From Escherichia coli (GTDB lineage: Bacteria > Pseudomonadota > Gammaproteobacteria > Enterobacterales > Enterobacteriaceae), in the NCBI RefSeq assembly GCF_001677475.2, contig NZ_CP015229.1: a stretch of 64,000 bases of DNA. One strand, 5' to 3'. The notes beneath the pieces were generated by a model. The model did not search any database and was not told the origin of the DNA. It saw only the letters and a program-made list of their open reading frames with translations. Positions 3,903 through 55,754 of the stretch are shown one piece after another; within the stretch, counting starts at the first letter, position 1, and each line of letters begins with the position of its first letter. The position numbers and the translations under genes are program-made.

Positions 3903-4089
3903 GCCTGATGCGACGCTGGCGCGTCTTATCAGGCCTACAAGACCCGAGCACAGAACCGTAGGCCGGATAAGGCGTTCACGCCGCATCCGGCATTCAGTGC
4001 CTGATGCGACGCTGACGCGTCTTATCAGGCCTACAGGTCCCGAGCACAGAACCGTAGGACGGATAAGGCGTTTTACGCCGCATCCGGCA
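3903..4089. repeat. REP/BIME cluster (two inverted REP units)
   Basis: Two copies of gcctgatgcgacgctg.cgcgtcttatcaggcctaca ... ccgtaggncggataaggcgtt.acgccgcatccggca between wcaK and wzxC. Confidence 0.8.
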
Positions 4090-8497: not shown

Positions 8498-8587
8498 GTC
8501 GTTACCCTTTTTCAGGCAATAGTTGGCCCTGACCGAAGCGGCCAATTTTGTTTTTGTCGTTATTTACATCGCGGTTCGGCATTCATT

Positions 8588-23028: not shown

Positions 23029-23040
23029 CACGCTACCGCC
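23029..23040 (-). promoter_or_regulatory. ops element (GGCGGTAGCGTG) inside the JUMPstart of the cps leader; RfaH recruitment site
   Basis: Plus strand reads cacgctaccgcc, so the minus (cps-sense) strand reads ggcggtagcgtg, about 180 nt upstream of the wza ATG in the untranslated leader. Confidence 0.7.
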
Positions 23041-23252
23041 CCTGGCTTTTAGCTACCAATACACTGATTTAGCTTAATTTTTAAAACCCTCTCAACATAC
23101 AGTCGTTGATGAGAAAGGGTTATTGCGGAAATTAACTTCCGAATATAAGGTGACATTATGGTAATTGAATATTGGCTCTCCAATAATGCAGGAGGAAGTG
23201 TTACAGCTAACGGAATAGCAGGCAAGGTAACAATTCGGCAATTGGCTATTTT

Positions 23253-38432: not shown

Positions 38433-38613
38433 AAGAAATCCTTTCTTAGAGAATTATTGAGGTCCGGTATCATACCGATTGCAATAATGAAATAAGAGCA
38501 AACGAAGAAACTTTCAGAATTAGTCCCGGCGGCGCAGAAAATTTTGCTATTCGCCTCGCAAGAACGGAGAGCCGTCGATTGACACTAAGGGCGGAGTGAC
38601 ATAATTTCAGGAG

Positions 38614-38763
38614 TGAGGGTTAGGGAGAGGTTTCCCCCTCCCCCTGGTGTTCTTAGTAAGCCTGGAAGCTAATCACTAAGAGTATCACCAGTATGATGAC
38701 GTGCTTCATCATAACCCTTTCCTTATTAAAAGCCCTCTTCTCCGGGAGAGGCTTTCCCGTTTC
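38614..38763 (+). ncRNA. sibA: Sib antitoxin sRNA, copy 1 (SibA-like); ends approximate
   Basis: Promoter ttgaca (38579-84), 17-bp spacer, taattt; antisense to the whole ibs ORF; terminator hairpin agccctcttctccgggagaggct plus tttcccgttt. Confidence 0.6.
38653..38712 (-). CDS. ibsA: Ibs type I toxin peptide, 19 aa (MMKHVIILVILLVISFQAY)
   Basis: Minus-strand atgatgaagcacgtcatcatactggtgatactcttagtgattagcttccaggcttactaa; hydrophobic Ibs-family peptide fully overlapped by the antisense Sib. Confidence 0.8.
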   Translation of the reverse strand: MMKHVIILVILLVISFQAY

Positions 38764-38948
38764 AGCGTCCCGCTGAAATCGTCGGCTTACCTCCTTTCGC
38801 CCTGAATGCAGTCTATCGCTAACGCGTGAACAAAATAGTTTCCTCTGTGATTATTGCGTAACGACTCGCAAAGAATATTTGCTGGCAGGATCGCAGACTG
38901 CAAAGCCTGCAGATTGACAATCTTATCGTGAAGGCATACTTTCAGGAG

Positions 38949-39090
38949 TGAGGGTAGAGCGGGGGTTCCCCCGCCCTGGTAGTCTTAGTAAGCCGGGAAG
39001 CTTATGACTAAGAGCACCACGATGATGATCCACTTCATCATGACCCTTTCCTTATTTAAGGCCCCTTCCTCGGGAGGGGCTTTCCCGTTT
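38949..39090 (+). ncRNA. sibB: Sib antitoxin sRNA, copy 2; ends approximate
   Basis: Promoter ttgaca (38914-19), N17, tacttt (38937-42); terminator gccccttcctcgggaggggc plus tttcccgttt. Confidence 0.6.
38985..39041 (-). CDS. ibsB: Ibs type I toxin peptide, 18 aa (MMKWIIIVVLLVISFPAY)
   Basis: Minus-strand atgatgaagtggatcatcatcgtggtgctcttagtcataagcttcccggcttactaa. Confidence 0.8.
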   Translation of the reverse strand: MMKWIIIVVLLVISFPAY

Positions 39091-39276
39091 CAGCGTCCCG
39101 CTGAAATCATCGGCTTACCTCCTTTCGCCCTGAATGCAGTCTATCGCTGACTTGCGGATAAAATAGTTTCACATGTGATTATTGCGTAGCGTCTCGCAAA
39201 GAATATTTGCTGGCAGGATCGCAGACTGCAAAGCCTGCAGATTGACAATCTTATCGTGAAGGCATACTTTCAGGAG

Positions 39277-39418
39277 TGAGGGTAGAGCGGGGTTTCCCCC
39301 GCCCTGGTAGTCTTAGTAAGCTGGCCAGCTAATGACTAAGAGCACCACGATGATGAGTATCTTCATCATGACCCTTTCCTTATTTAAGACCCCTTCCTCG
39401 GGAGGGGCTTTCCCGTTT
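39277..39418 (+). ncRNA. Sib antitoxin sRNA, copy 3; ends approximate
   Basis: Promoter ttgaca (39242-47), N17, tacttt (39265-70); terminator hairpin 39388-39408 plus T-run. Confidence 0.6.
39313..39369 (-). CDS. Ibs type I toxin peptide, 18 aa (MMKILIIVVLLVISWPAY)
   Basis: Minus-strand atgatgaagatactcatcatcgtggtgctcttagtcattagctggccagcttactaa. Confidence 0.75.
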   Translation of the reverse strand: MMKILIIVVLLVISWPAY

Positions 39419-43800: not shown

Positions 43801-44017
43801 GATGACCACTCTGGCGGCACTGCTTGGCGCGCTGCCGCTGATGTTGAGTACCGGGGTCGGCGCGGAACTGCGTCGTCCGTTAGGTATCGGCATGGTCGGC
43901 GGTCTGATTGTCAGCCAGGTGCTGACGCTGTTTACCACGCCGGTGATTTATTTGCTGTTCGACCGCCTGGCATTGTGGACCAAAAGCCGCTTTGCCCGTC
44001 ATGAAGAGGAGGCGTAA
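40895..44017 (+). CDS. mdtB: RND multidrug efflux transporter MdtB
   Basis: 1040-aa [37 protein letters not shown]...; AcrB/RND superfamily; start overlaps the mdtA stop (TGATG). Confidence 0.9.
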
Positions 44018-47000
44018 GTGAAGTTTTTTGCCCTCTTCATTTACCGCCCGGTGGCGACGATTTTACTGTCGGTCGCCATTACCCTTTGCGGCATACTGGG
44101 CTTCCGTATGCTGCCGGTCGCCCCGCTGCCGCAGGTCGATTTTCCGGTGATTATGGTCAGCGCCTCGCTGCCCGGTGCGTCACCTGAAACAATGGCGTCT
44201 TCCGTTGCCACGCCGCTGGAGCGCTCACTTGGGCGCATTGCCGGAGTCAGCGAAATGACCTCCAGCAGTTCGCTCGGCAGCACGCGGATTATTTTGCAGT
44301 TTGATTTTGACCGGGATATCAACGGCGCAGCGCGTGATGTGCAGGCGGCGATCAACGCTGCACAAAGTTTGCTGCCCAGCGGGATGCCAAGCCGTCCGAC
44401 CTATCGCAAAGCGAACCCGTCGGATGCGCCAATTATGATCCTGACGCTAACCTCCGATACTTATTCGCAAGGTGAACTGTACGATTTCGCCTCAACACAG
44501 CTTGCCCCGACGATTGCGCAAATCGACGGTGTCGGTGATGTCGATGTTGGCGGCAGCTCGCTGCCCGCCGTGCGCGTCGGGCTGAATCCGCAGGCGCTGT
44601 TTAATCAGGGCGTATCGCTGGACGACGTACGCACTGCCATCAGCAATGCCAACGTGCGTAAACCGCAGGGGGCGCTGGAAGATGGCACTCACCGCTGGCA
44701 GATCCAGACCAATGATGAGCTAAAAACCGCCGCTGAATATCAGCCGTTGATTATTCATTACAACAACGGCGGCGCGGTTCGTCTGGGTGATGTGGCGACG
44801 GTGACAGACTCGGTGCAGGATGTGCGCAACGCCGGGATGACCAACGCCAAACCGGCTATTTTGCTGATGATCCGCAAGCTGCCGGAAGCCAATATTATCC
44901 AGACGGTTGACAGCATCCGGGCAAAATTACCGGAGTTGCAGGAGACCATTCCGGCGGCGATTGATCTGCAAATTGCCCAGGATCGCTCCCCCACCATTCG
45001 CGCCTCGCTGGAAGAAGTCGAGCAAACGCTGATTATCTCGGTGGCGCTGGTGATTCTGGTGGTGTTTTTATTCCTGCGCTCGGGTCGCGCCACTATTATT
45101 CCCGCCGTTGCGGTGCCGGTTTCGCTGATTGGTACGTTTGCGGCGATGTACCTGTGCGGTTTCAGTCTCAATAATCTTTCGTTAATGGCGCTCACCATCG
45201 CTACTGGTTTCGTGGTGGATGACGCCATCGTAGTGCTGGAAAACATTGCCCGTCATCTGGAAGCGGGGATGAAACCGCTACAGGCCGCGCTGCAAGGCAC
45301 CCGTGAAGTCGGATTTACGGTGCTGTCGATGAGTCTGTCACTGGTGGCGGTGTTCCTGCCGCTGCTGTTGATGGGCGGATTGCCGGGCCGACTGTTACGC
45401 GAATTTGCCGTGACGCTTTCAGTCGCCATTGGGATTTCGTTGCTGGTTTCCCTCACGCTAACGCCGATGATGTGCGGCTGGATGCTAAAAGCCAGCAAGC
45501 CGCGCGAGCAAAAGCGACTGCGTGGTTTTGGTCGCATGTTGGTAGCCCTGCAACAAGGCTATGGCAAGTCGCTGAAATGGGTGCTCAATCATACCCGTCT
45601 GGTTGGCGTGGTGCTGCTTGGCACCATTGCGCTGAATATCTGGCTATATATCTCGATCCCGAAAACCTTCTTCCCGGAGCAGGACACCGGCGTGTTGATG
45701 GGCGGGATACAGGCGGATCAGAGTATTTCGTTTCAGGCAATGCGCGGCAAATTGCAGGATTTCATGAAAATTATCCGTGACGATCCGGCAGTGGATAATG
45801 TCACCGGATTTACCGGCGGTTCGCGAGTGAACAGCGGGATGATGTTTATCACCCTCAAGCCACGCGACGAACGCAGCGAAACGGCGCAGCAAATTATCGA
45901 CCGTCTGCGGGTGAAGCTGGCGAAAGAACCGGGGGCGAATCTGTTCCTGATGGCGGTACAGGATATTCGCGTTGGTGGGCGTCAGTCGAACGCCAGCTAC
46001 CAGTACACGTTGTTATCCGACGACCTGGCGGCACTGCGCGAATGGGAGCCGAAAATCCGCAAAAAACTGGCGACGTTGCCAGAATTGGCGGACGTGAACT
46101 CCGATCAGCAGGATAACGGCGCGGAGATGAATCTGGTTTACGATCGCGACACCATGGCGCGGCTGGGAATCGACGTGCAGGCCGCCAACAGCCTGTTAAA
46201 TAACGCCTTCGGTCAGCGGCAAATCTCGACCATTTACCAGCCGATGAACCAGTACAAAGTGGTGATGGAAGTGGATCCGCGCTATACCCAGGACATCAGC
46301 GCGCTGGAAAAAATGTTCGTTATCAATAACGAAGGAAAAGCGATCCCACTGTCGTATTTCGCTAAATGGCAACCGGCGAATGCCCCGCTGTCGGTGAATC
46401 ATCAGGGATTATCGGCGGCCTCGACCATCTCGTTCAACCTGCCGACCGGAAAATCGCTCTCGGACGCCAGTGCGGCGATCGATCGCGCAATGACCCAGCT
46501 TGGTGTGCCTTCGACGGTGCGCGGCAGTTTTGCCGGAACAGCGCAGGTGTTCCAGGAGACGATGAACTCACAGGTGATCCTGATTATCGCCGCCATCGCC
46601 ACGGTCTATATCGTGCTGGGTATCCTTTACGAGAGTTACGTACATCCGTTGACGATTCTCTCCACCCTGCCCTCGGCGGGCGTTGGGGCGCTGTTGGCGC
46701 TGGAGCTGTTCAATGCCCCGTTCAGCCTAATCGCCCTAATAGGGATCATGCTATTAATCGGCATCGTGAAGAAAAACGCCATTATGATGGTCGATTTTGC
46801 GCTTGAAGCCCAACGGCACGGTAACCTCACGCCGCAGGAAGCTATTTTCCAGGCCTGTCTGCTGCGTTTTCGCCCGATTATGATGACTACCCTGGCGGCG
46901 CTGTTTGGCGCGCTGCCGCTGGTATTGTCGGGCGGTGACGGTTCGGAGCTGCGGCAACCCCTGGGGATCACCATTGTCGGCGGTCTGGTAATGAGCCAGC

Positions 47001-47095
47001 TTCTGACGCTGTATACCACACCGGTGGTGTATCTCTTTTTCGACCGTCTGCGGCTGCGTTTTTCGCGTAAACCTAAACAAACGGTAACCGAGTAA
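44018..47095 (+). CDS. mdtC: RND multidrug efflux transporter MdtC
   Basis: 1025-aa [46 protein letters not shown]... Confidence 0.9.
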
Positions 47096-48511
47096 ATGAC
47101 AGATCTTCCCGACAGCACCCGCTGGCAATTGTGGATTGTGGCTTTCGGCTTCTTTATGCAGTCGCTGGACACCACCATCGTAAACACTGCCCTTCCCTCA
47201 ATGGCACAAAGCCTCGGGGAAAGTCCGTTGCATATGCACATGGTCATTGTCTCTTATGTACTGACCGTGGCGGTGATGCTGCCCGCCAGCGGCTGGCTGG
47301 CGGACAAAGTCGGCGTGCGCAATATTTTCTTTACCGCCATCGTGCTGTTTACTCTCGGTTCACTGTTTTGCGCGCTTTCCGGCACGCTGAACGAACTGTT
47401 GCTGGCACGCGCGTTACAGGGCGTTGGCGGTGCGATGATGGTGCCGGTCGGCAGGTTAACGGTGATGAAAATCGTACCGCGCGAGCAATATATGGCGGCA
47501 ATGACCTTTGTCACGTTACCCGGTCAGGTCGGTCCGCTGCTCGGTCCGGCGCTCGGCGGTCTGCTGGTGGAATACGCGTCGTGGCACTGGATCTTTTTGA
47601 TCAACATTCCGGTGGGAATTATCGGTGCGATCGCCACATTGATGTTAATGCCGAACTACACCATGCAGACGCGGCGCTTTGATCTTTCCGGCTTTTTATT
47701 GCTGGCGGTTGGCATGGCGGTATTAACCCTGGCGCTGGACGGCAGTAAAGGTACAGGTTTATCGCCGCTGGCGATTGCTGGCCTGGTCGCAGTTGGCGTG
47801 GTGGCACTGGTGCTTTATCTGCTGCACGCCAGAAATAACAACCGCGCCCTGTTCAGTCTGAAACTGTTCCGTACTCGTTCCTTTTCGCTGGGCCTGGCGG
47901 GGAGTTTTGCCGGACGTATTGGCAGTGGCATGTTGCCCTTTATGACACCGGTTTTCCTGCAAATTGGCCTTGGCTTCTCACCGTTTCATGCCGGACTGAT
48001 GATGATCCCGATGGTGCTTGGCAGCATGGGAATGAAGCGAATTGTTGTTCAGGTGGTGAATCGCTTTGGCTACCGTCGGGTACTGGTAGCGACCACGCTG
48101 GGTCTGTCGCTGGTCACCCTGTTGTTTATGACTACCGCTCTGTTGGGCTGGTACTACGTTTTGCCGTTCGTCCTGTTTTTACAAGGGATGGTCAACTCGA
48201 CCCGTTTCTCCTCCATGAACACCCTGACGCTGAAAGATCTCCCGGACAATCTGGCGAGCAGCGGCAACAGTCTGCTGTCGATGATTATGCAATTGTCGAT
48301 GAGTATCGGCGTCACAATCGCCGGGCTGTTGCTGGGACTTTTTGGTTCGCAGCATGTCAGCGTCGACAGCGGCACCACACAAACCGTCTTTATGTACACC
48401 TGGCTTAGCATGGCGTTTATCATCGCCCTTCCGGCGTTCATCTTTGCCAGAGTGCCGAACGATACGCATCAAAATGTAGCTATTTCGCGGCGAAAAAGGA
48501 GCGCGCAATGA
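47096..48511 (+). CDS. mdtD: MFS transporter MdtD
   Basis: 471-aa [44 protein letters not shown]...; 14-TM MFS. Confidence 0.9.
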
Positions 48512-49911
48512 AGTTTTGGCGACCCGGTATTACCGGCAAACTGTTTCTGGCGATTTTCGCCACCTGCATTGTCTTGCTGATCAGTATGCACTGGGCGGTG
48601 CGTATCAGTTTTGAGCGTGGCTTTATTGATTACATCAAGCATGGTAATGAACAGCGATTACAACTGTTAAGTGATGCGCTTGGCGAGCAGTATGCGCAAC
48701 ATGGCAACTGGCGCTTCCTGCGCAACAATGATCGCTTTGTCTTTCAGATCCTGCGTTCATTTGAACACGATAATTCGGAAGATAAACCCGGCCCGGGTAT
48801 GCCACCACACGGCTGGCGTACTCAGTTCTGGGTGGTTGATCAAAACAACAAAGTGCTGGTTGGTCCGCGAGCGCCGATTCCACCTGACGGTACACGGCGA
48901 CCCATTCTGGTCAACGGTGCGGAAGTGGGCGCGGTGATTGCCTCCCCCGTTGAGCGGCTGACCCGCAATACTGATATCAATTTCGATAAACAACAACGGC
49001 AAACCAGCTGGCTGATTGTCGCCCTGGCAACGTTACTCGCGGCACTCGCCACTTTTCTGCTGGCGCGCGGTTTGCTGGCACCGGTAAAACGACTTGTCGA
49101 TGGCACGCACAAACTGGCGGCAGGCGATTTCACTACCCGCGTAACGCCCACCAGTGAAGATGAACTGGGCAAACTGGCGCAAGACTTCAACCAGCTTGCC
49201 AGCACGCTGGAGAAAAACCAGCAAATGCGGCGCGATTTTATGGCCGATATTTCTCACGAACTGCGTACGCCATTAGCGGTGCTGCGCGGTGAACTGGAAG
49301 CCATTCAGGATGGCGTGCGCAAATTCACGCCGGAGACGGTGGCGTCTTTACAGGCGGAGGTCGGTACACTGACCAAACTGGTTGACGATCTTCATCAGTT
49401 GTCGATGTCTGATGAAGGCGCTCTCGCCTATCAAAAAGCACCGGTAGATTTGATCCCACTGCTGGAAGTGGCGGGCGGCGCATTTCGCGAACGATTTGCC
49501 AGCCGTGGCCTGAAACTGCAATTTTCCCTGCCAGACAGTATCACCGTATTTGGCGATCGCGACCGTTTAATGCAGTTATTCAATAACTTACTTGAAAACA
49601 GCCTGCGCTACACTGACAGCGGCGGCAGCCTGAAAATCTCTGCCGAGCAGCACGACAAAACGGTGCGCCTGACCTTTGCCGACAGTGCGCCAGGTGTCAG
49701 TGACGATCAGCTACAAAAATTGTTTGAACGTTTTTATCGCACCGAAGGTTCCCGCAACCGCGCCAGCGGCGGTTCCGGGCTGGGGCTGGCGATTTGCCTG
49801 AACATTGTTGAAGCACATAATGGCCGCATTATTGCTGCCCATTCGCCTTTTGGCGGGGTAAGCATTACAGTAGAGTTACCGCTGGAACGGGATTTACAGA
49901 GAGAAGTATGA
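48508..49911 (+). CDS. baeS: Envelope-stress sensor histidine kinase BaeS
   Basis: 467-aa ORF with HAMP, H-box (ISHELRTPL) and HATPase_c ([10 protein letters not shown]) motifs. Confidence 0.9.
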
Positions 49912-50630
49912 CCGAGTTACCAATCGACGAAAACACACCGCGTATTTTGATCGTGGAAGATGAACCGAAGCTGGGGCAGTTGCTCATTGATTATCTGCGT
50001 GCTGCGAGCTATGCGCCGACGCTTATCAGCCACGGCGATCAGGTACTGCCGTATGTGCGCCAGACACCACCGGATCTGATCCTGTTGGATCTGATGCTCC
50101 CTGGCACCGATGGCTTGACGCTGTGCCGGGAAATTCGTCGTTTTTCTGACATTCCTATCGTGATGGTGACGGCAAAAATCGAAGAGATCGACCGCCTGCT
50201 CGGACTGGAGATTGGCGCAGATGATTATATCTGTAAGCCGTACAGCCCACGGGAAGTGGTAGCGCGCGTCAAAACCATTTTGCGCCGTTGCAAACCGCAG
50301 CGCGAGTTGCAGCAACAGGATGCTGAAAGCCCGTTGATTATCGACGAAGGTCGTTTTCAGGCTTCATGGCGTGGTAAAATGCTTGACCTGACGCCTGCGG
50401 AATTTCGTCTGCTGAAAACGCTCTCTCATGAACCAGGAAAAGTGTTCTCCCGCGAGCAATTGCTCAATCATCTTTATGACGACTACCGCGTAGTAACCGA
50501 CCGCACCATCGACAGCCACATTAAAAACCTGCGCCGCAAGCTGGAATCTCTCGACGCCGAACAGTCATTTATCCGCGCCGTTTACGGCGTTGGTTACCGC
50601 TGGGAAGCCGACGCCTGCCGCATCGTTTAG
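49908..50630 (+). CDS. baeR: OmpR-family response regulator BaeR
   Basis: 240-aa [33 protein letters not shown]...; REC plus winged-helix domains; overlaps baeS by 4 bp. Confidence 0.9.
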
Positions 50631-50820
50631 TTTTAGCGACATTACTTTGTTAGCCGGAGATGGCGTTCAGACCAGATCCGGCAACATTATCCCACGCATG
50701 GTCAGCAAACTGACATTATCTCTCCGCCCTGGCAGGTATCAGAAAATCGCTCATACTTTAATCGGTAAACAGCACCTTTAGATGCTGTTTTCGATACGCA
50801 ATTTCAATCAAGGAGTCATT

Positions 50821-51153
50821 ATGGCTGGTTGGTTTGAACTCAGTAAGAGCAGTGATAATCAGTTCCGGTTTGTGCTAAAAGCGGGCAATGGTGAGACTAT
50901 CCTCACCAGCGAGCTGTATACCTCAAAAGCCTCTGCGGAAAAGGGCATTGCGTCGGTGCGTAGCAACAGCCCGCAAGAAGAACGCTATGAGAAAAAAACG
51001 GCAAGCAACGGCAAATTCTATTTCAATCTGAAAGCCGCCAATCATCAAATTATCGGCTCCAGCCAGATGTACGCCACCGCGCAATCTCGTGAAACCGGAA
51101 TTGCCTCCGTTAAAGCCAATGGCACAAGCCAGACGGTGAAAGACAATACGTAA
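50821..51153 (+). CDS. yegP: UPF0339 (tandem DUF1508) protein YegP
   Basis: ORF 50782..51153 trimmed to MAGWFELSKSSDNQFRFVLKAGNGETILTSELY... (110 aa) with RBS aaggag; two internal repeats (FRFVLKA.., FYFNLKA..). Confidence 0.85.
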   Translation: MAGWFELSKSSDNQFRFVLKAGNGETILTSELYTSKASAEKGIASVRSNSPQEERYEKKTASNGKFYFNLKAANHQIIGSSQMYATAQSRETGIASVKANGTSQTVKDNT

Positions 51154-51299
51154 TTACGATGCCGGGCGTGGGTTGTTGGCGTCCGGCGCTTTACCAGATA
51201 CCCCCACAGCGCTACAATGCCCGCCCTTAAAGTGGGGGCACTCCCCTAACCGCTTCATCAGGTGAAGCGGATCTGACCTGTCATCAGAACGAGAGAATT

Positions 51300-52661
51300 A
51301 TGTTTAAACCGGAACTCCTTTCCCCGGCGGGAACGCTGAAAAATATGCGTTACGCTTTCGCTTATGGCGCAGATGCTGTTTATGCGGGCCAGCCGCGTTA
51401 CTCCCTGCGTGTGCGCAACAACGAATTCAACCACGAAAATCTTCAGCTCGGCATCAATGAAGCCCACGCGCTGGGGAAAAAGTTTTATGTCGTGGTCAAC
51501 ATTGCACCGCACAACGCCAAGCTGAAAACTTTTATCCGTGACCTGAAACCGGTGGTGGAAATGGGGCCGGATGCGCTGATTATGTCCGATCCAGGGCTGA
51601 TTATGCTGGTGCGTGAGCACTTCCCTGAAATGCCGATCCATCTCTCGGTACAGGCTAACGCCGTGAACTGGGCGACGGTGAAATTCTGGCAGCAAATGGG
51701 CCTGACCCGCGTGATCCTCTCTCGCGAGCTGTCGCTGGAAGAGATTGAAGAGATCCGCAATCAGGTGCCAGATATGGAGATCGAAATCTTCGTTCACGGC
51801 GCGCTGTGCATGGCCTACTCCGGTCGCTGCCTGCTCTCTGGCTATATCAACAAGCGCGACCCGAACCAGGGCACCTGCACCAACGCCTGCCGCTGGGAGT
51901 ACAACGTCCAGGAAGGGAAAGAAGATGACGTTGGCAACATCGTACACAAGTACGAGCCGATTCCGGTGCAAAATGTTGAGCCGACGCTGGGTATCGGCGC
52001 GCCAACCGACAAAGTGTTTATGATCGAAGAAGCCCAGCGTCCGGGCGAGTATATGACCGCGTTTGAAGATGAGCACGGCACTTACATCATGAACTCGAAA
52101 GATCTGCGCGCCATCGCCCATGTAGAACGCCTGACCAAAATGGGCGTGCATTCGCTGAAAATCGAAGGTCGTACCAAATCTTTCTACTATTGCGCACGCA
52201 CCGCGCAGGTTTACCGTAAAGCTATCGATGACGCCGCTGCGGGCAAACCGTTCGATACCAGCCTGCTGGAAACTCTGGAAGGTCTGGCGCATCGTGGCTA
52301 TACCGAAGGTTTCCTGCGTCGTCATACTCACGACGATTATCAGAACTACGAATACGGTTATTCAGTTTCTGACCGCCAGCAGTTTGTTGGTGAGTTTACC
52401 GGTGAGCGCAAGGGGGACCTCGCGGCGGTAGCGGTGAAAAATAAATTCTCCGTTGGCGACAGCCTGGAGCTGATGACGCCGCAAGGCAACATTAACTTTA
52501 CCCTTGAGCACATGGAAAACGCCAAAGGCGAAGCTATGCCGGTAGCACCAGGCGATGGTTATACTGTGTGGCTCCCGGTGCCGCAGGATCTTGAGCTAAA
52601 TTACGCGCTGCTGATGCGTAATTTCTCCGGGGAAACCACGCGTAACCCCCACGGTAAGTGA
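51300..52661 (+). CDS. trhP: Peptidase U32-family protein YegQ / TrhP (tRNA 5-hydroxyuridine synthesis)
   Basis: 453-aa ORF MFKPELLSPAGTLKNMRYAFAYGADAVYAGQPRYSLR...; U32 family. Confidence 0.85.
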   Translation: MFKPELLSPAGTLKNMRYAFAYGADAVYAGQPRYSLRVRNNEFNHENLQLGINEAHALGKKFYVVVNIAPHNAKLKTFIRDLKPVVEMGPDALIMSDPGLIMLVREHFPEMPIHLSVQANAVNWATVKFWQQMGLTRVILSRELSLEEIEEIRNQVPDMEIEIFVHGALCMAYSGRCLLSGYINKRDPNQGTCTNACRWEYNVQEGKEDDVGNIVHKYEPIPVQNVEPTLGIGAPTDKVFMIEEAQRPGEYMTAFEDEHGTYIMNSKDLRAIAHVERLTKMGVHSLKIEGRTKSFYYCARTAQVYRKAIDDAAAGKPFDTSLLETLEGLAHRGYTEGFLRRHTHDDYQNYEYGYSVSDRQQFVGEFTGERKGDLAAVAVKNKFSVGDSLELMTPQGNINFTLEHMENAKGEAMPVAPGDGYTVWLPVPQDLELNYALLMRNFSGETTRNPHGK

Positions 52662-52691
52662 TTAATTTCGATTATTTTTCCCGGATGGAAA

Positions 52692-52713
52692 ATTCTTAGA
52701 AACCGATCACATA
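52692..52713 (+). promoter_or_regulatory. Candidate CRP site of the cyaR promoter
   Basis: One good half-site TCACA (52707-11) with a weak partner ttaga; centred about 43 bp upstream of the cyaR 5' end; -10-like tatcat at 52733-38. Confidence 0.35.
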
Positions 52714-52745
52714 CAGCTGCATTTATTAAGGTTATCATCCGTTTC

Positions 52746-52832
52746 GCTGAAAAACATAACCCATAAAATGCTAGCTGTACCAGGAACCACCTCCTTAGCC
52801 TGTGTAATCTCCCTTACACGGGCTTATTTTTT
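52746..52832 (+). ncRNA. cyaR: CyaR (RyeE) Hfq-dependent sRNA
   Basis: gctgaaaaacataacccataaaatgctagctgtaccaggaaccacctccttagcctgtgtaatctcccttacacgggcttatttttt matches my memory of CyaR and ends in a terminator hairpin (gtgtaa...ttacac) plus T6. Confidence 0.85.
52806..52832. other. Phage P2-type attachment core, apparently unoccupied attB, at the cyaR 3' end
   Basis: aatctcccttacacgggcttatttttt is the reverse complement of the P2 att core AAAAAATAAGCCCGTGTAAGGGAGATT (from memory); no ogr-like or other phage ORF follows. Confidence 0.55.
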
Positions 52833-53160
52833 ATGCATAAGCCCTATCCCTGATAACCGTCTTCCATTGACCACATCGATAGAATCCCCCTTCATAGCAC
52901 GATGCCTTTCACTTAACGGCATCGTGCTCGCCCAGGTTCCGGCTACGCACGGCCAGAACGCGCATGTTTGACGCTTACCAAAAAATGAACCTAAAGCATT
53001 GGAATATTTTTGACATCATTTTCTGATGGCGGCATAGAATAAAAATTCTGCTTTAGTTTCATCTATCTGTTTGTCATTATTACTCACATTCAATAATGGT
53101 GTTGAAGAACATCTATCAGAGATAAAAATGAATGTGTCCATGGTAGTCTTGAATCTATTC

Positions 53161-53478
53161 TCACTCTCCACATTTGAATGTCAGACGAGCGACGCCATGT
53201 AATCCTGCACCTTCTGTCTTCAGGTCAACTATCTGCATTTTTTTGCCCTGAGTAACACAGAAATGGGCTGCATCATTTTTTACTATATTTTCTGCACCAG
53301 AAATTCTGCCCCTGGCTAAAGAAGCTTCGGCTTCGGTGTAGTATTGGTTATCGAGTTTACGCTGAATATTACTTTTATATGCAAGGCCAAATTTACCGAT
53401 ACTTGTCTCATCATTATGCACAGCACAACCAGACATAAGAAAAACACTAATTAATGATATAGCAGCTATCTTGTTCAC
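53161..53478 (-). CDS. yegR: Small putative lipoprotein, probably YegR
   Basis: ORF 53161..53538; probable GTG start giving (M)NKIAAISLISVFLMSGCAV... (105 aa) with lipobox LMSGC; position next to yegS. Confidence 0.55.
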   Translation of the reverse strand: MNKIAAISLISVFLMSGCAVHNDETSIGKFGLAYKSNIQRKLDNQYYTEAEASLARGRISGAENIVKNDAAHFCVTQGKKMQIVDLKTEGAGLHGVARLTFKCGE

Positions 53479-53894
53479 CTCACCTTCCCCCATTAAATAC
53501 CAACGACACTCTCTAGTGTTTAAATATAATAATGGCATGATTATTATAATTGAATAGGATTATAATAAATATTCTGTACAACATTTCCTACATAAGTAGG
53601 AATTACGGACATGGAGGCCCTTCCGGGTAACTCCATGGGGGGCTTTAATATATTTTGAATAGTATATTGAAGATGCCACTGTTTAGTTGAATTATTAGGT
53701 ATATGCTCTTTTTTGAAATTTATCGGTAGCTGCCGTTAGTATTCGCTGTCCCCATTGCAAGCTCCTGGTGGTAACCACTGAATCCTCCATACTTGAACTG
53801 ACTTTTTATCCTCCGACTTTCATCCTGTTCTGACTCCACCTTTTCTTTTCTGCTCTACACTATCTACAGACCAATCATAAAGGCACATACGATC

Positions 53895-54794
53895 ATGGCA
53901 GAATTTCCCGCCAGCTTACTGATTCTTAATGGCAAAAGTACTGACAATTTACCATTGCGCGAAGCAATTATGCTTTTGCGTGAGGAAGGAATGACGATCC
54001 ATGTGCGGGTCACCTGGGAGAAAGGTGATGCCGCACGATTTGTAGAGGAGGCCCGGAAGTTGGGCGTCGCAACGGTGATTGCCGGTGGTGGCGATGGCAC
54101 CATTAATGAAGTTTCTACGGCGTTGATTCAGTGTGAGGGGGATGACATACCCGCGCTGGGAATTTTGCCATTAGGAACCGCCAATGATTTTGCCACCAGT
54201 GTAGGGATTCCTGAGGCACTGGATAAGGCACTGAAACTGGCAATTGCCGGTAACGCCATTGCAATAGATATGGCGCAGGTCAACAAACAAACCTGTTTTA
54301 TTAATATGGCGACAGGCGGGTTTGGGACGCGTATTACCACAGAAACGCCGGAAAAATTAAAAGCCGCGCTGGGTGGCGTCTCTTACATCATTCATGGCTT
54401 AATGCGTATGGATACTCTGCAACCGGACCGTTGTGAAATCCGCGGTGAAAACTTTCACTGGCAAGGTGACGCCCTGGTCATTGGTATTGGTAACGGGCGT
54501 CAGGCCGGTGGCGGTCAACAATTGTGCCCGAACGCGTTAATTAACGATGGCTTGCTGCAACTGCGCATTTTTACCGGCGATGAAATTCTTCCGGCTCTCG
54601 TATCAACCTTAAAATCTGACGAAGATAACCCGAATATTATCGAAGGCGCTTCGTCGTGGTTTGATATACAAGCCCCACACGAAATCACTTTTAATCTTGA
54701 TGGCGAACCGTTGAGTGGGCAAAACTTCCATATTGAAATACTTCCGGCGGCGTTACGTTGTCGATTACCACCAGATTGTCCATTATTGCGTTAA
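53895..54794 (+). CDS. yegS: Lipid kinase YegS (DAGK_cat family)
   Basis: 299-aa [35 protein letters not shown]...GGDGTINEV... Confidence 0.9.
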
Positions 54795-54832
54795 TCAAAC
54801 TATTCTTTCTTGAACCAGGGAGAATCCGTAAT

Positions 54833-54866
54833 GCCGGATGCGGTGTAAACACCTTATCCGGCATAC
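54833..54866. repeat. REP element
   Basis: gccggatgcggtgtaaacaccttatccggcat between yegS and gatR. Confidence 0.7.
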
Positions 54867-54875
54867 AGAACAATA

Positions 54876-55655
54876 CTACACCGTAATTAATTTTACCCGT
54901 GTCTTCTGCAATGCCAGTTTATCCACCTCTGACACAGCATCATCGGTAATAATAATGTCGATTTTTTCGATTGGCAGTACCTGATTAAAACCACGACGGT
55001 TAAATTTCGATGAATCGAGAACGGCAATCACTTTATTAGCGGCGGTGACCATCGCCCCGCTAATCGAATAACCTTCATTAAAGGTCGTAATACCATTAAC
55101 CGCATCAATACCATCAGCACCGACAAACATTAAATCGGCATTAATATCCTGCAATGAACGCTCGGCAATGGAACCATGCATCGAGCGCGTTTTATGGCGG
55201 ACGGTGCCACCACAGACGACCAGAGTAATGTCTTTATTTTCGGAAAGGGCAAACGCTGCCGGGAGACTATTGGTAATCACCGTGATATTTTTGGCGGTCA
55301 TTAATCCTTCAGCGATAAGCATCGTCGTACTTCCGCTGTCGAGAATAACGGTCATCCCTTCGTGGATCATTTTGACTGCCGCCTGCGCTATTCTGTTTTT
55401 TGGCGCGCTGGCGAGCTGAAATCGCTCTTTAAACCCGACTTCCTGGGTCTCGATTTCACTATTACCAGACATTATTTTCGCCGCACCGCCATGAAAGCGC
55501 GTAACCACGCCTTTTTGTTCGAGAAAGCGCAAATCGGCACGGATTGTCGCTTCCGAGGCAGCAAATACTCCCGCCAGATCCTGAACAAGCACGGTTCCCT
55601 GTTCATTCACTAATTGGATGATCTTATTCCTTCGCTCGAATGAATTCATCGTCAT
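54876..55655 (-). CDS. gatR: DeoR-family galactitol operon repressor GatR, uninterrupted
   Basis: 259-aa ORF MTMNSFERRNKIIQLVNEQGTVLVQDLAGVFAASEATIRADLRFLEQKGVV...; continuous HTH plus sugar-binding domain; no IS sequence. Confidence 0.85.
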   Translation of the reverse strand: MTMNSFERRNKIIQLVNEQGTVLVQDLAGVFAASEATIRADLRFLEQKGVVTRFHGGAAKIMSGNSEIETQEVGFKERFQLASAPKNRIAQAAVKMIHEGMTVILDSGSTTMLIAEGLMTAKNITVITNSLPAAFALSENKDITLVVCGGTVRHKTRSMHGSIAERSLQDINADLMFVGADGIDAVNGITTFNEGYSISGAMVTAANKVIAVLDSSKFNRRGFNQVLPIEKIDIIITDDAVSEVDKLALQKTRVKLITV

Positions 55656-55714
55656 TTACCCATATTCAATTGTGGCTAGTGTAAACGAAGGGGGACCATT
55701 GGTGAATGATCTGT

Positions 55715-55750
55715 TTTGCACAATACCGGGCCAGCATCACGCTGGCCCGC
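55715..55750 (-). terminator. Candidate gat operon terminator
   Basis: cgggccagc-atcac-gctggcccg hairpin just downstream of the gatD stop; flanking U-run is weak. Confidence 0.3.
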
Positions 55751-55754
55751 GGTT

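Follow-up and report, generated by a model that had tools for sequence, protein, structure and literature searches.

An unoccupied P2 attachment site at the 3' end of Escherichia coli cyaR and a probable old, att-flanked P2-type relic beside it

The 3' end of the small RNA gene cyaR in the Escherichia coli DNA analysed here (the window, meaning the whole stretch of 64,000 nt) appears to be an unoccupied chromosomal attachment site, attB, of phage P2 at 52806..52832, and the interval that follows it (52833..53808) is probably an old P2-type relic flanked by att-like ends. We give this combined reading, which was reached by sequence comparison, a probability of roughly 0.8. The relic is most likely shared by each of the 5,426 complete E. 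coli genomes. The ‘empty’ E. coli site, including the conserved gene yegR, appears to be the leftover of an earlier P2-type insertion, while a genuinely empty state survives in a sister lineage. The initial annotation had described the locus as a naive integration hotspot. The term hotspot stands, with a larger insertion at the core in about 17% of 5,423 complete E. coli genomes, and the term naive does not, because the interval after cyaR shows homology to att arms on both sides, in the form of P-arm homology at 52833..52882 and P'-arm- and core-like sequence at 53751..53808. The locus would thereby offer an example of the repeated use of a single sRNA-terminator site and of prophage remnants becoming fixed chromosomal genes.

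The cyaR gene was identified by a full-length match to the Rfam family CyaR_RyeE (RF00112) at 52744..52829 on the plus strand, with 100.7 bits against a gathering score of 47, and including its terminator it occupies 52744..52832 (plus strand). The Rho-independent terminator consists of a stem-loop at 52797..52824 followed by a T-run, the U-tract of the RNA, that reaches 52832; no other terminator-like site was found in 52600..53700. The last 27 nt of cyaR, AATCTCCCTTACACGGGCTTATTTTTT at 52806..52832 on the plus strand, begin two bases before the loop of this terminator, within the 5' stem arm, and run on through the loop and the 3' stem arm to the end of the U-tract; they match at 27 of 27 positions the P2 feature annotated as ‘attP’ and ‘Int attP core’ (AF063097, 24356..24382). 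A blastn search of 50,697 phage records extended the match to P2 to 28 of 28 nt (AF063097, 24355..24382, minus strand), confirming the earlier statement that the last 27 nt of cyaR are the reverse complement of the P2 att core. The same core is found in the other Peduovirus genomes P2_2H4, P2_2H1, P2_4C9, 9W and 10W. It is unique in the 64-kb window, where no second copy with up to three mismatches was detected and where none would be expected by chance (100 shuffles).

Because the core is identical to that of P2 and the prophage junctions of other genomes lie at its edges, 52806..52832 is predicted to function as an attB. On these grounds it would be the classical, preferred chromosomal attB of P2, which we take to be the site named locI, the preferred site in E. 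coli C, reportedly mapped by Barreiro and Haggard-Ljungquist in 1992. From what is known of P2 biology, the P2 integrase and IHF would recombine the 27-bp core of attP with the identical 27-bp chromosomal core, and, since the phage brings its own copy of the core, the cyaR terminator at the left junction would be intact again after integration. Read from cyaR towards the downstream flank, the integrated prophage would have the order core, P arm, ogr and D at one end and int, P' arm and core at the other, and a P2 lysogen of 52806..52832 would be expected to show the junctions cyaR-core-P arm and P' arm-core-ATGCATAAGCC. The genome from which the window derives is predicted to be lysogenised by P2 at this position. 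Genome annotations can mark the 27-bp core as attB(P2), giving a precise boundary for the calling of P2-type prophages, for which prophage callers evidently overrun into yegR and yegS.

The use of cyaR as a P2 landing site, the K-12 remnant at this position and the existence of empty strains are already known, all of them being textbook knowledge or published. ‘cyaR RNA’ has been tabulated as a P2 insertion site, with Wphi2 entered for strain W, ogr-D' for K-12, P2*B for strain B and none for Crooks (Archer et al., 2011; PMC3032704). The site in the window shares with the tabulated one its core, its position at the 3' end of cyaR between yegQ and yegR/yegS, and its junction points. Its core is no different from that of the P2 attB as known, and what the window adds is a 169-nt AT-rich segment further downstream. 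The restoration of the RNA gene after integration is a likeness to phages that integrate into the 3' ends of tRNA, tmRNA and sRNA genes, among them 186 at tRNA-Ile, Fels-2 and SopE-phi at ssrA, and P2-like phages at rybB (PMC3448106; PMC3032704). Unlike the cores of these phages, the short P2 core of 27 nt lies entirely within the terminator and includes no structural domain of the RNA.

Upstream of cyaR lies yegQ/trhP (51300..52661, plus strand), a 453-aa ORF named after the annotation of syntenic E. coli genomes. Downstream are yegR (53161..53478, minus strand), an ORF that is annotated in syntenic genomes and encodes a small lipoprotein of 105 aa in this form, the conserved yegS upstream block together with yegS (53810..54794, plus strand; CDS 53895..54794), and, beyond yegS, a gene for a DeoR-family repressor in the position of gatR (54876..55655). 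Since the yegS upstream block follows the cyaR core directly in the genome E69 and in the metagenome contig L033, both discussed below, this block and yegS would form the true far flank of the integration slot. No homologue of P2 Int, Ogr or gpD or of K-12 OgrK was found by tblastn in the whole window (best E = 0.1, outside the site), 52700..53250 contains no zinc-finger-like ORF of the CxxC...CxxC type, and strains 042 and 106 have empty alleles that are co-linear with the window. The site is therefore without a prophage and without a K-12-type ogrK/D' remnant. The initial annotation was accordingly right on two counts, in reporting neither an Ogr-like ORF nor an ogrK-yegZ remnant, and in calling the attachment site empty, as the core is contiguous with the flank that is found to the right of prophages elsewhere and int, ogr and D are missing.

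K-12 matches the window through cyaR and the core, beyond which it has a P2-type P arm, then ogrK, a truncated D and finally a partial core, TACACGGGCTTATTTTTTT, confirming by direct comparison the cryptic P2 remnant that had been attributed to this strain. After the partial core comes the flank ATGCATAAGCCC..., the same sequence that follows the core directly in the window. The two genomes have the core and the downstream flank in common; they differ in that the window is without the remnant composed of ogrK and yegZ (the truncated D), and both would retain the older relic, which is much more decayed. Judged with a 120-nt probe across the site, 4,207 of 5,423 complete E. coli genomes are contiguous there, approximately 308 more are contiguous only if a small, K-12-like insertion is tolerated, and approximately 908 have a larger insertion at the core. 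Where a complete E. coli genome matches only in part, the match has exactly 52806 as its first position or exactly 52832 as its last. All three of the larger insertions that were sampled are P2-type prophages, each with the order gpB-orf-cox-C-int (1014 nt)-P' arm-core abutting the downstream flank of the window, and in one of the three genomes the other prophage end was located about 33 kb away, with tail genes, D and ogr abutting yegQ. A P' arm identical to that of P2 precedes the core in five occupied loci. The comparison with occupied strains that had been proposed at the outset thus places the junctions on the core edges, the right ones starting at 52806 and the left ones finishing at 52832, with the core duplicated.

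Directly after the core, 52833..52882 (plus strand) resembles the P arm of P2 attP, with 37 identities in 49 aligned positions by global alignment; 16 nt that hold the IHF site in P2 are missing from the window. An exact 15-mer within it, CATTGACCACATCGA at 52865..52879, falls inside the annotated P-arm binding site of P2 Int (L004, 1563-1590) and includes one of the two Int arm-type repeats, at the expected offset of 33-47 nt from the core. The local alignment of the P arm scored 30, which was reached by none of 2000 dinucleotide shuffles. The 15-mer is identical in P2, in nine compared E. coli loci and in a lineage diverged by approximately 6%, while the surrounding DNA has decayed to about 75% identity and has lost the IHF site. 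In Escherichia sp. MOD1-EC7003, whose left flank is 93.6% identical to that of the window, the part with the IHF site is kept, and the left end scored 44 against the P2 P arm versus 15.4 ± 2.4 for shuffled sequences (z = 11.8, 0/5000). A match of 52833..53160 to P2-family DNA had been named at the outset as evidence against a naive site, and such homology is found in a limited way, as the P-arm homology of 52833..52882. Searched against the 50,697 phage records, the window gave nothing past the core except records with host flank.

The far end of the interval, 53751..53808 (plus strand), reads CCATTGCAAGCTCCTGGTGGTAACCACTG-AATCCTCCATACTTGAACTGACTTTTTA immediately before the conserved yegS upstream block, and we interpret it as a decayed attR-like end, made up of a P'-arm-like part at 53751..53780 and a degenerate core, AATCCTCCATACTTGAACTGACTTTTTA, at 53781..53808. 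Aligned with the P' arm and core of P2, it shows 40 identities in 58 aligned columns (z = 3.8), a score that 29 of 5000 shuffles reach, and its core matches at about 18 of 27 positions with one indel. The similarity of the window's own right end thus appears modest, and in a scan of the window with the core only, the site at 53781 was no better than about 54 other sites and is no evidence when taken alone. The case for the right end is made instead by its position, by its orthology with the MOD1-EC7003 copy and by the junction in the metagenome contig L032. The right end of MOD1-EC7003 scored 47 against the P2 P' arm and core versus 15.6 ± 2.2 for shuffled sequences (z = 14.2, 0/5000), with 21 of 27 core positions matching without gaps. 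Further to the left, toward the former 3' end of int, P'-arm homology was not significant in either the window or MOD1-EC7003.

An allele without the cassette was found in a genome labelled E. coli E69, which is 95% identical to the window in yegQ and 87% identical in yegS. There the cyaR core is joined directly to the sequence that starts at about 53810 in the window, 85 nt upstream of yegS. Metagenome contigs were scanned for a core with the yegS upstream block no more than 30 nt behind it, and two were found, L032 and L033, both 99.4% identical to E69. Contig L033 has the order yegQ-cyaR-core-yegS without 52833..~53809, and this cyaR-core-yegS allele of E69 and L033 is the truly naive allele. 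Contig L032 carries a P2-identical P' arm, the core and the yegS upstream sequence, a real attR in the E69 lineage, and its BLAST alignment with the window starts within the P' arm, at 53752, and runs on without interruption. P2 attP, the real attR, the MOD1-EC7003 end, the window and the K-12 end form a graded series in the alignment. The E69-type junction is unlikely to be an assembly artefact, because it was seen in three independent assemblies; among the 5,426 complete E. coli genomes, the cassette-less cyaR-core-yegS junction was found in none. The sister lineage may either never have had the cassette or have excised it. In Salmonella, homology upstream of yegS begins at 53818. A match of ‘Salmonella phage S.Kent 1-2-1’ to 53818..53865 was rejected as a Salmonella chromosomal yegS fragment without the cyaR core.

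The resemblance to P2 could also have arisen in the opposite direction, if an ancestor of P2 had taken the 3' end of cyaR together with host flank by aberrant excision. Temperate phages that use tRNA and sRNA genes do carry the 3' end of their target, and such a capture would explain the likeness on the left side equally well. It would, however, leave unexplained both the P'-arm-plus-core-like far end next to yegS and the existence of a cassette-less allele. Moreover, the 15-mer holds an Int arm-type repeat, and P2-type phages that recognise other cores share repeats of this type, with the consensus tgTGGaCa (PMC3448106), which argues that they are functional elements of the phage and not host sequence. 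We therefore consider capture by the phage very unlikely.

A truly naive attB, with ordinary ancestral intergenic DNA following the core and a likeness to the P2 arms that is due to chance or convergence, is very improbable and largely refuted. The window contains no phage gene, the phage records offer no match past the core once those with host flank are set aside, and the right-end site does not stand out in the core-only scan, all of which speaks for a naive site. Yet chance or convergence would have to produce an exact 15-mer in an Int arm site at the expected offset, as none of the 2000 shuffles did, as well as the two ends of MOD1-EC7003 that match at z = 12 and 14, in a segment that is precisely absent from E69 and L033 and whose right end is co-linear with the real attR of L032. 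Finally, it is hardly credible that the intact core makes a poor or non-functional attB here through interference from the neighbouring relic arm, in the way that P2 is said to be diverted to the secondary site locH by the full P arm that adjoins the core in K-12. One Int arm-type repeat is indeed kept 33-47 nt from the core, but in five loci the same flank, ATGCATAAGCCCTATC..., lies on the right-hand side of a resident P2-type prophage, so that integration beside the relic flank is routine, and about one in six complete genomes has a large insertion at the site.

Under the reading that we prefer, an old att-flanked relic next to an unoccupied attB, an ancestor from which both E. coli and the MOD1-EC7003 lineage descend would have acquired a P2-type prophage at the cyaR core, and nearly all of the phage DNA would then have been lost. 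The core copy on the yegS side would have drifted while the copy on the cyaR side stayed perfect, because the latter is part of the cyaR terminator. The attB of today would in that case be the attL junction of the old relic. Present-day P2 phages would enter the surviving left core, from which it would follow that K-12 carries two generations of P2 remains in tandem. In the window the interval measures 976 nt, including yegR, and has 39% G+C, compared to 54% for yegQ and 49% for yegS; the orthologous relic of MOD1-EC7003 is 451 nt long, with both ends better preserved than those of the window.

Such a relic is of a familiar kind, an att-flanked prophage remnant with tandem accretion. Counterparts exist in the CIME-type elements described for ICESt1 and ICESt3 of Streptococcus thermophilus and in ‘grounded’ prophages. 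Similar to a CIME, the relic is bounded by attL-like and attR-like sites and has no recombinase of its own, and a single att site is reused by incoming elements, leading to tandem accretion as in K-12. In contrast to a CIME, its right-hand core is decayed, and mobilisation in trans appears doubtful for this reason. It is unlikely that the retained arm-type 15-mer still has a function, or that the yegR cassette remains mobilisable in trans. On one reading, the retained arm-type site might help to capture the P2 integrase and might be part of the reason why this site is preferred; on an alternative one, the cassette might be moved in trans by the Int and Cox of a resident P2. If either were true, a core E. 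coli lipoprotein gene would be the cargo of an ancient, fixed P2-type element.

The yegR ORF continues upstream to an ATG at 53538, and its product has the lipobox LMSGC. YegR has been detected as a lipoprotein in the proteome of O157:H7 (PMC3210124). The yegR family, PF27694, is almost confined to Escherichia and Shigella; our local copy of Pfam returned no match. The few relatives in other genera are found in unrelated chromosomal or IS-flanked, non-phage contexts, and phage genomes contain no homologue apart from records that include host flank. yegR does have a strong PHROG match (phrog_21109), which may be due to predicted prophages whose boundaries were drawn past the att site and into yegR. 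Two matches past the core were rejected on inspection of the records: ‘Escherichia phage vB_EcoM-720R8’ (ON470606.1) includes host yegR, yegS and gatR, and ‘Phage TP’ (AY639599.1) consists of a K-12-type ogr remnant and host yegQ. These two records can yield false ‘phage’ matches and probably explain the PHROG assignment of yegR. No published link between yegR and a prophage relic was found in a search that did not cover the 1992 mapping paper; as far as searched, the relic is a new observation, and the arm-like flank may have been noted in that paper.

The gap between cyaR and yegR, 52833..53160, measures 328 nt. The initial annotation had given it as about 330 bp of AT-rich sequence, which is accurate for the length and not for the composition of the whole, as the first 154 nt have 51% G+C and only the last 169 nt (52987..53155) fall to 32%. 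This AT-rich segment, which lies directly downstream of the yegR stop codon, is polymorphic. It is missing from K-12 and strain 106 and found in strain 042, and among 5,415 complete E. coli genomes 946 carry it (042 and APEC types), whereas about 82% do not. The segment is probably ancestral and was deleted later in most E. coli, because the cryptic lineage MOD1-EC7003 largely retains it (to window position 53109). The same region contains a 51-aa minus-strand ORF (53016..53171) with no family match. Closer to cyaR, an inverted repeat at 52896..52928 forms a near-perfect hairpin with 14-nt arms, AGCACGATGCCTTT and AACGGCATCGTGCT, and a 5-nt loop; it has no T-run on either strand and is conserved in E. 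coli. Its distance from the core matches that of the P2 ogr/F-operon terminator, which lies 68-91 nt after the core, and the sequences of the hairpin and the P2 terminator are not alignable. Weak matches of 52938..52992 to Salmonella Eganvirus (55 nt, 76%, E = 0.4-5) were dismissed as chance, as they fall in a gene for an ‘aI protein’ far from att.

The P2 core is also found outside Escherichia, with the identical 27 nt at the end of cyaR in six Kluyvera species. Homology of the Kluyvera loci to the window stops exactly at 52832. No P-arm relic follows the core in K. cryocrescens, K. ascorbata, K. sichuanensis or K. georgiana, and the last three, not K. cryocrescens, have a toxin-antitoxin-like ORF pair between cyaR and yegS. 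In K. intermedia a P2-type P arm follows the core, so the site is occupied by a P2-type element. Two contigs of metagenome-assembled genomes, L008 (‘Citrobacter sp.’) and L010 (‘Collinsella sp.’), contain E. coli-type junctions of cyaR with a P2 prophage at 96-98% identity to the window, and are probably mis-binned Escherichia DNA.

For 44000..56000 of the window, the best identity among 5,426 complete RefSeq E. coli genomes was 97.7%, and the source genome may belong to a divergent, E. coli-like lineage that is poorly represented among complete genomes. No tRNA gene was found in the window. Rfam matches other than cyaR comprise a JUMPstart element (23029..23066, minus strand), an algC RNA motif (8502..8551, minus strand) and two REP-type naRNA4 elements (3961..4031, plus strand, and 61341..61411, minus strand). 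Three tandem Sib antitoxin RNA genes are located at 38579..39384 (Rfam SIB_RNA, 138-150 bits); K-12 presumably has two at this locus, sibA and sibB, in which case the Sib/Ibs toxin-antitoxin repeat would differ in copy number between K-12 and the window.
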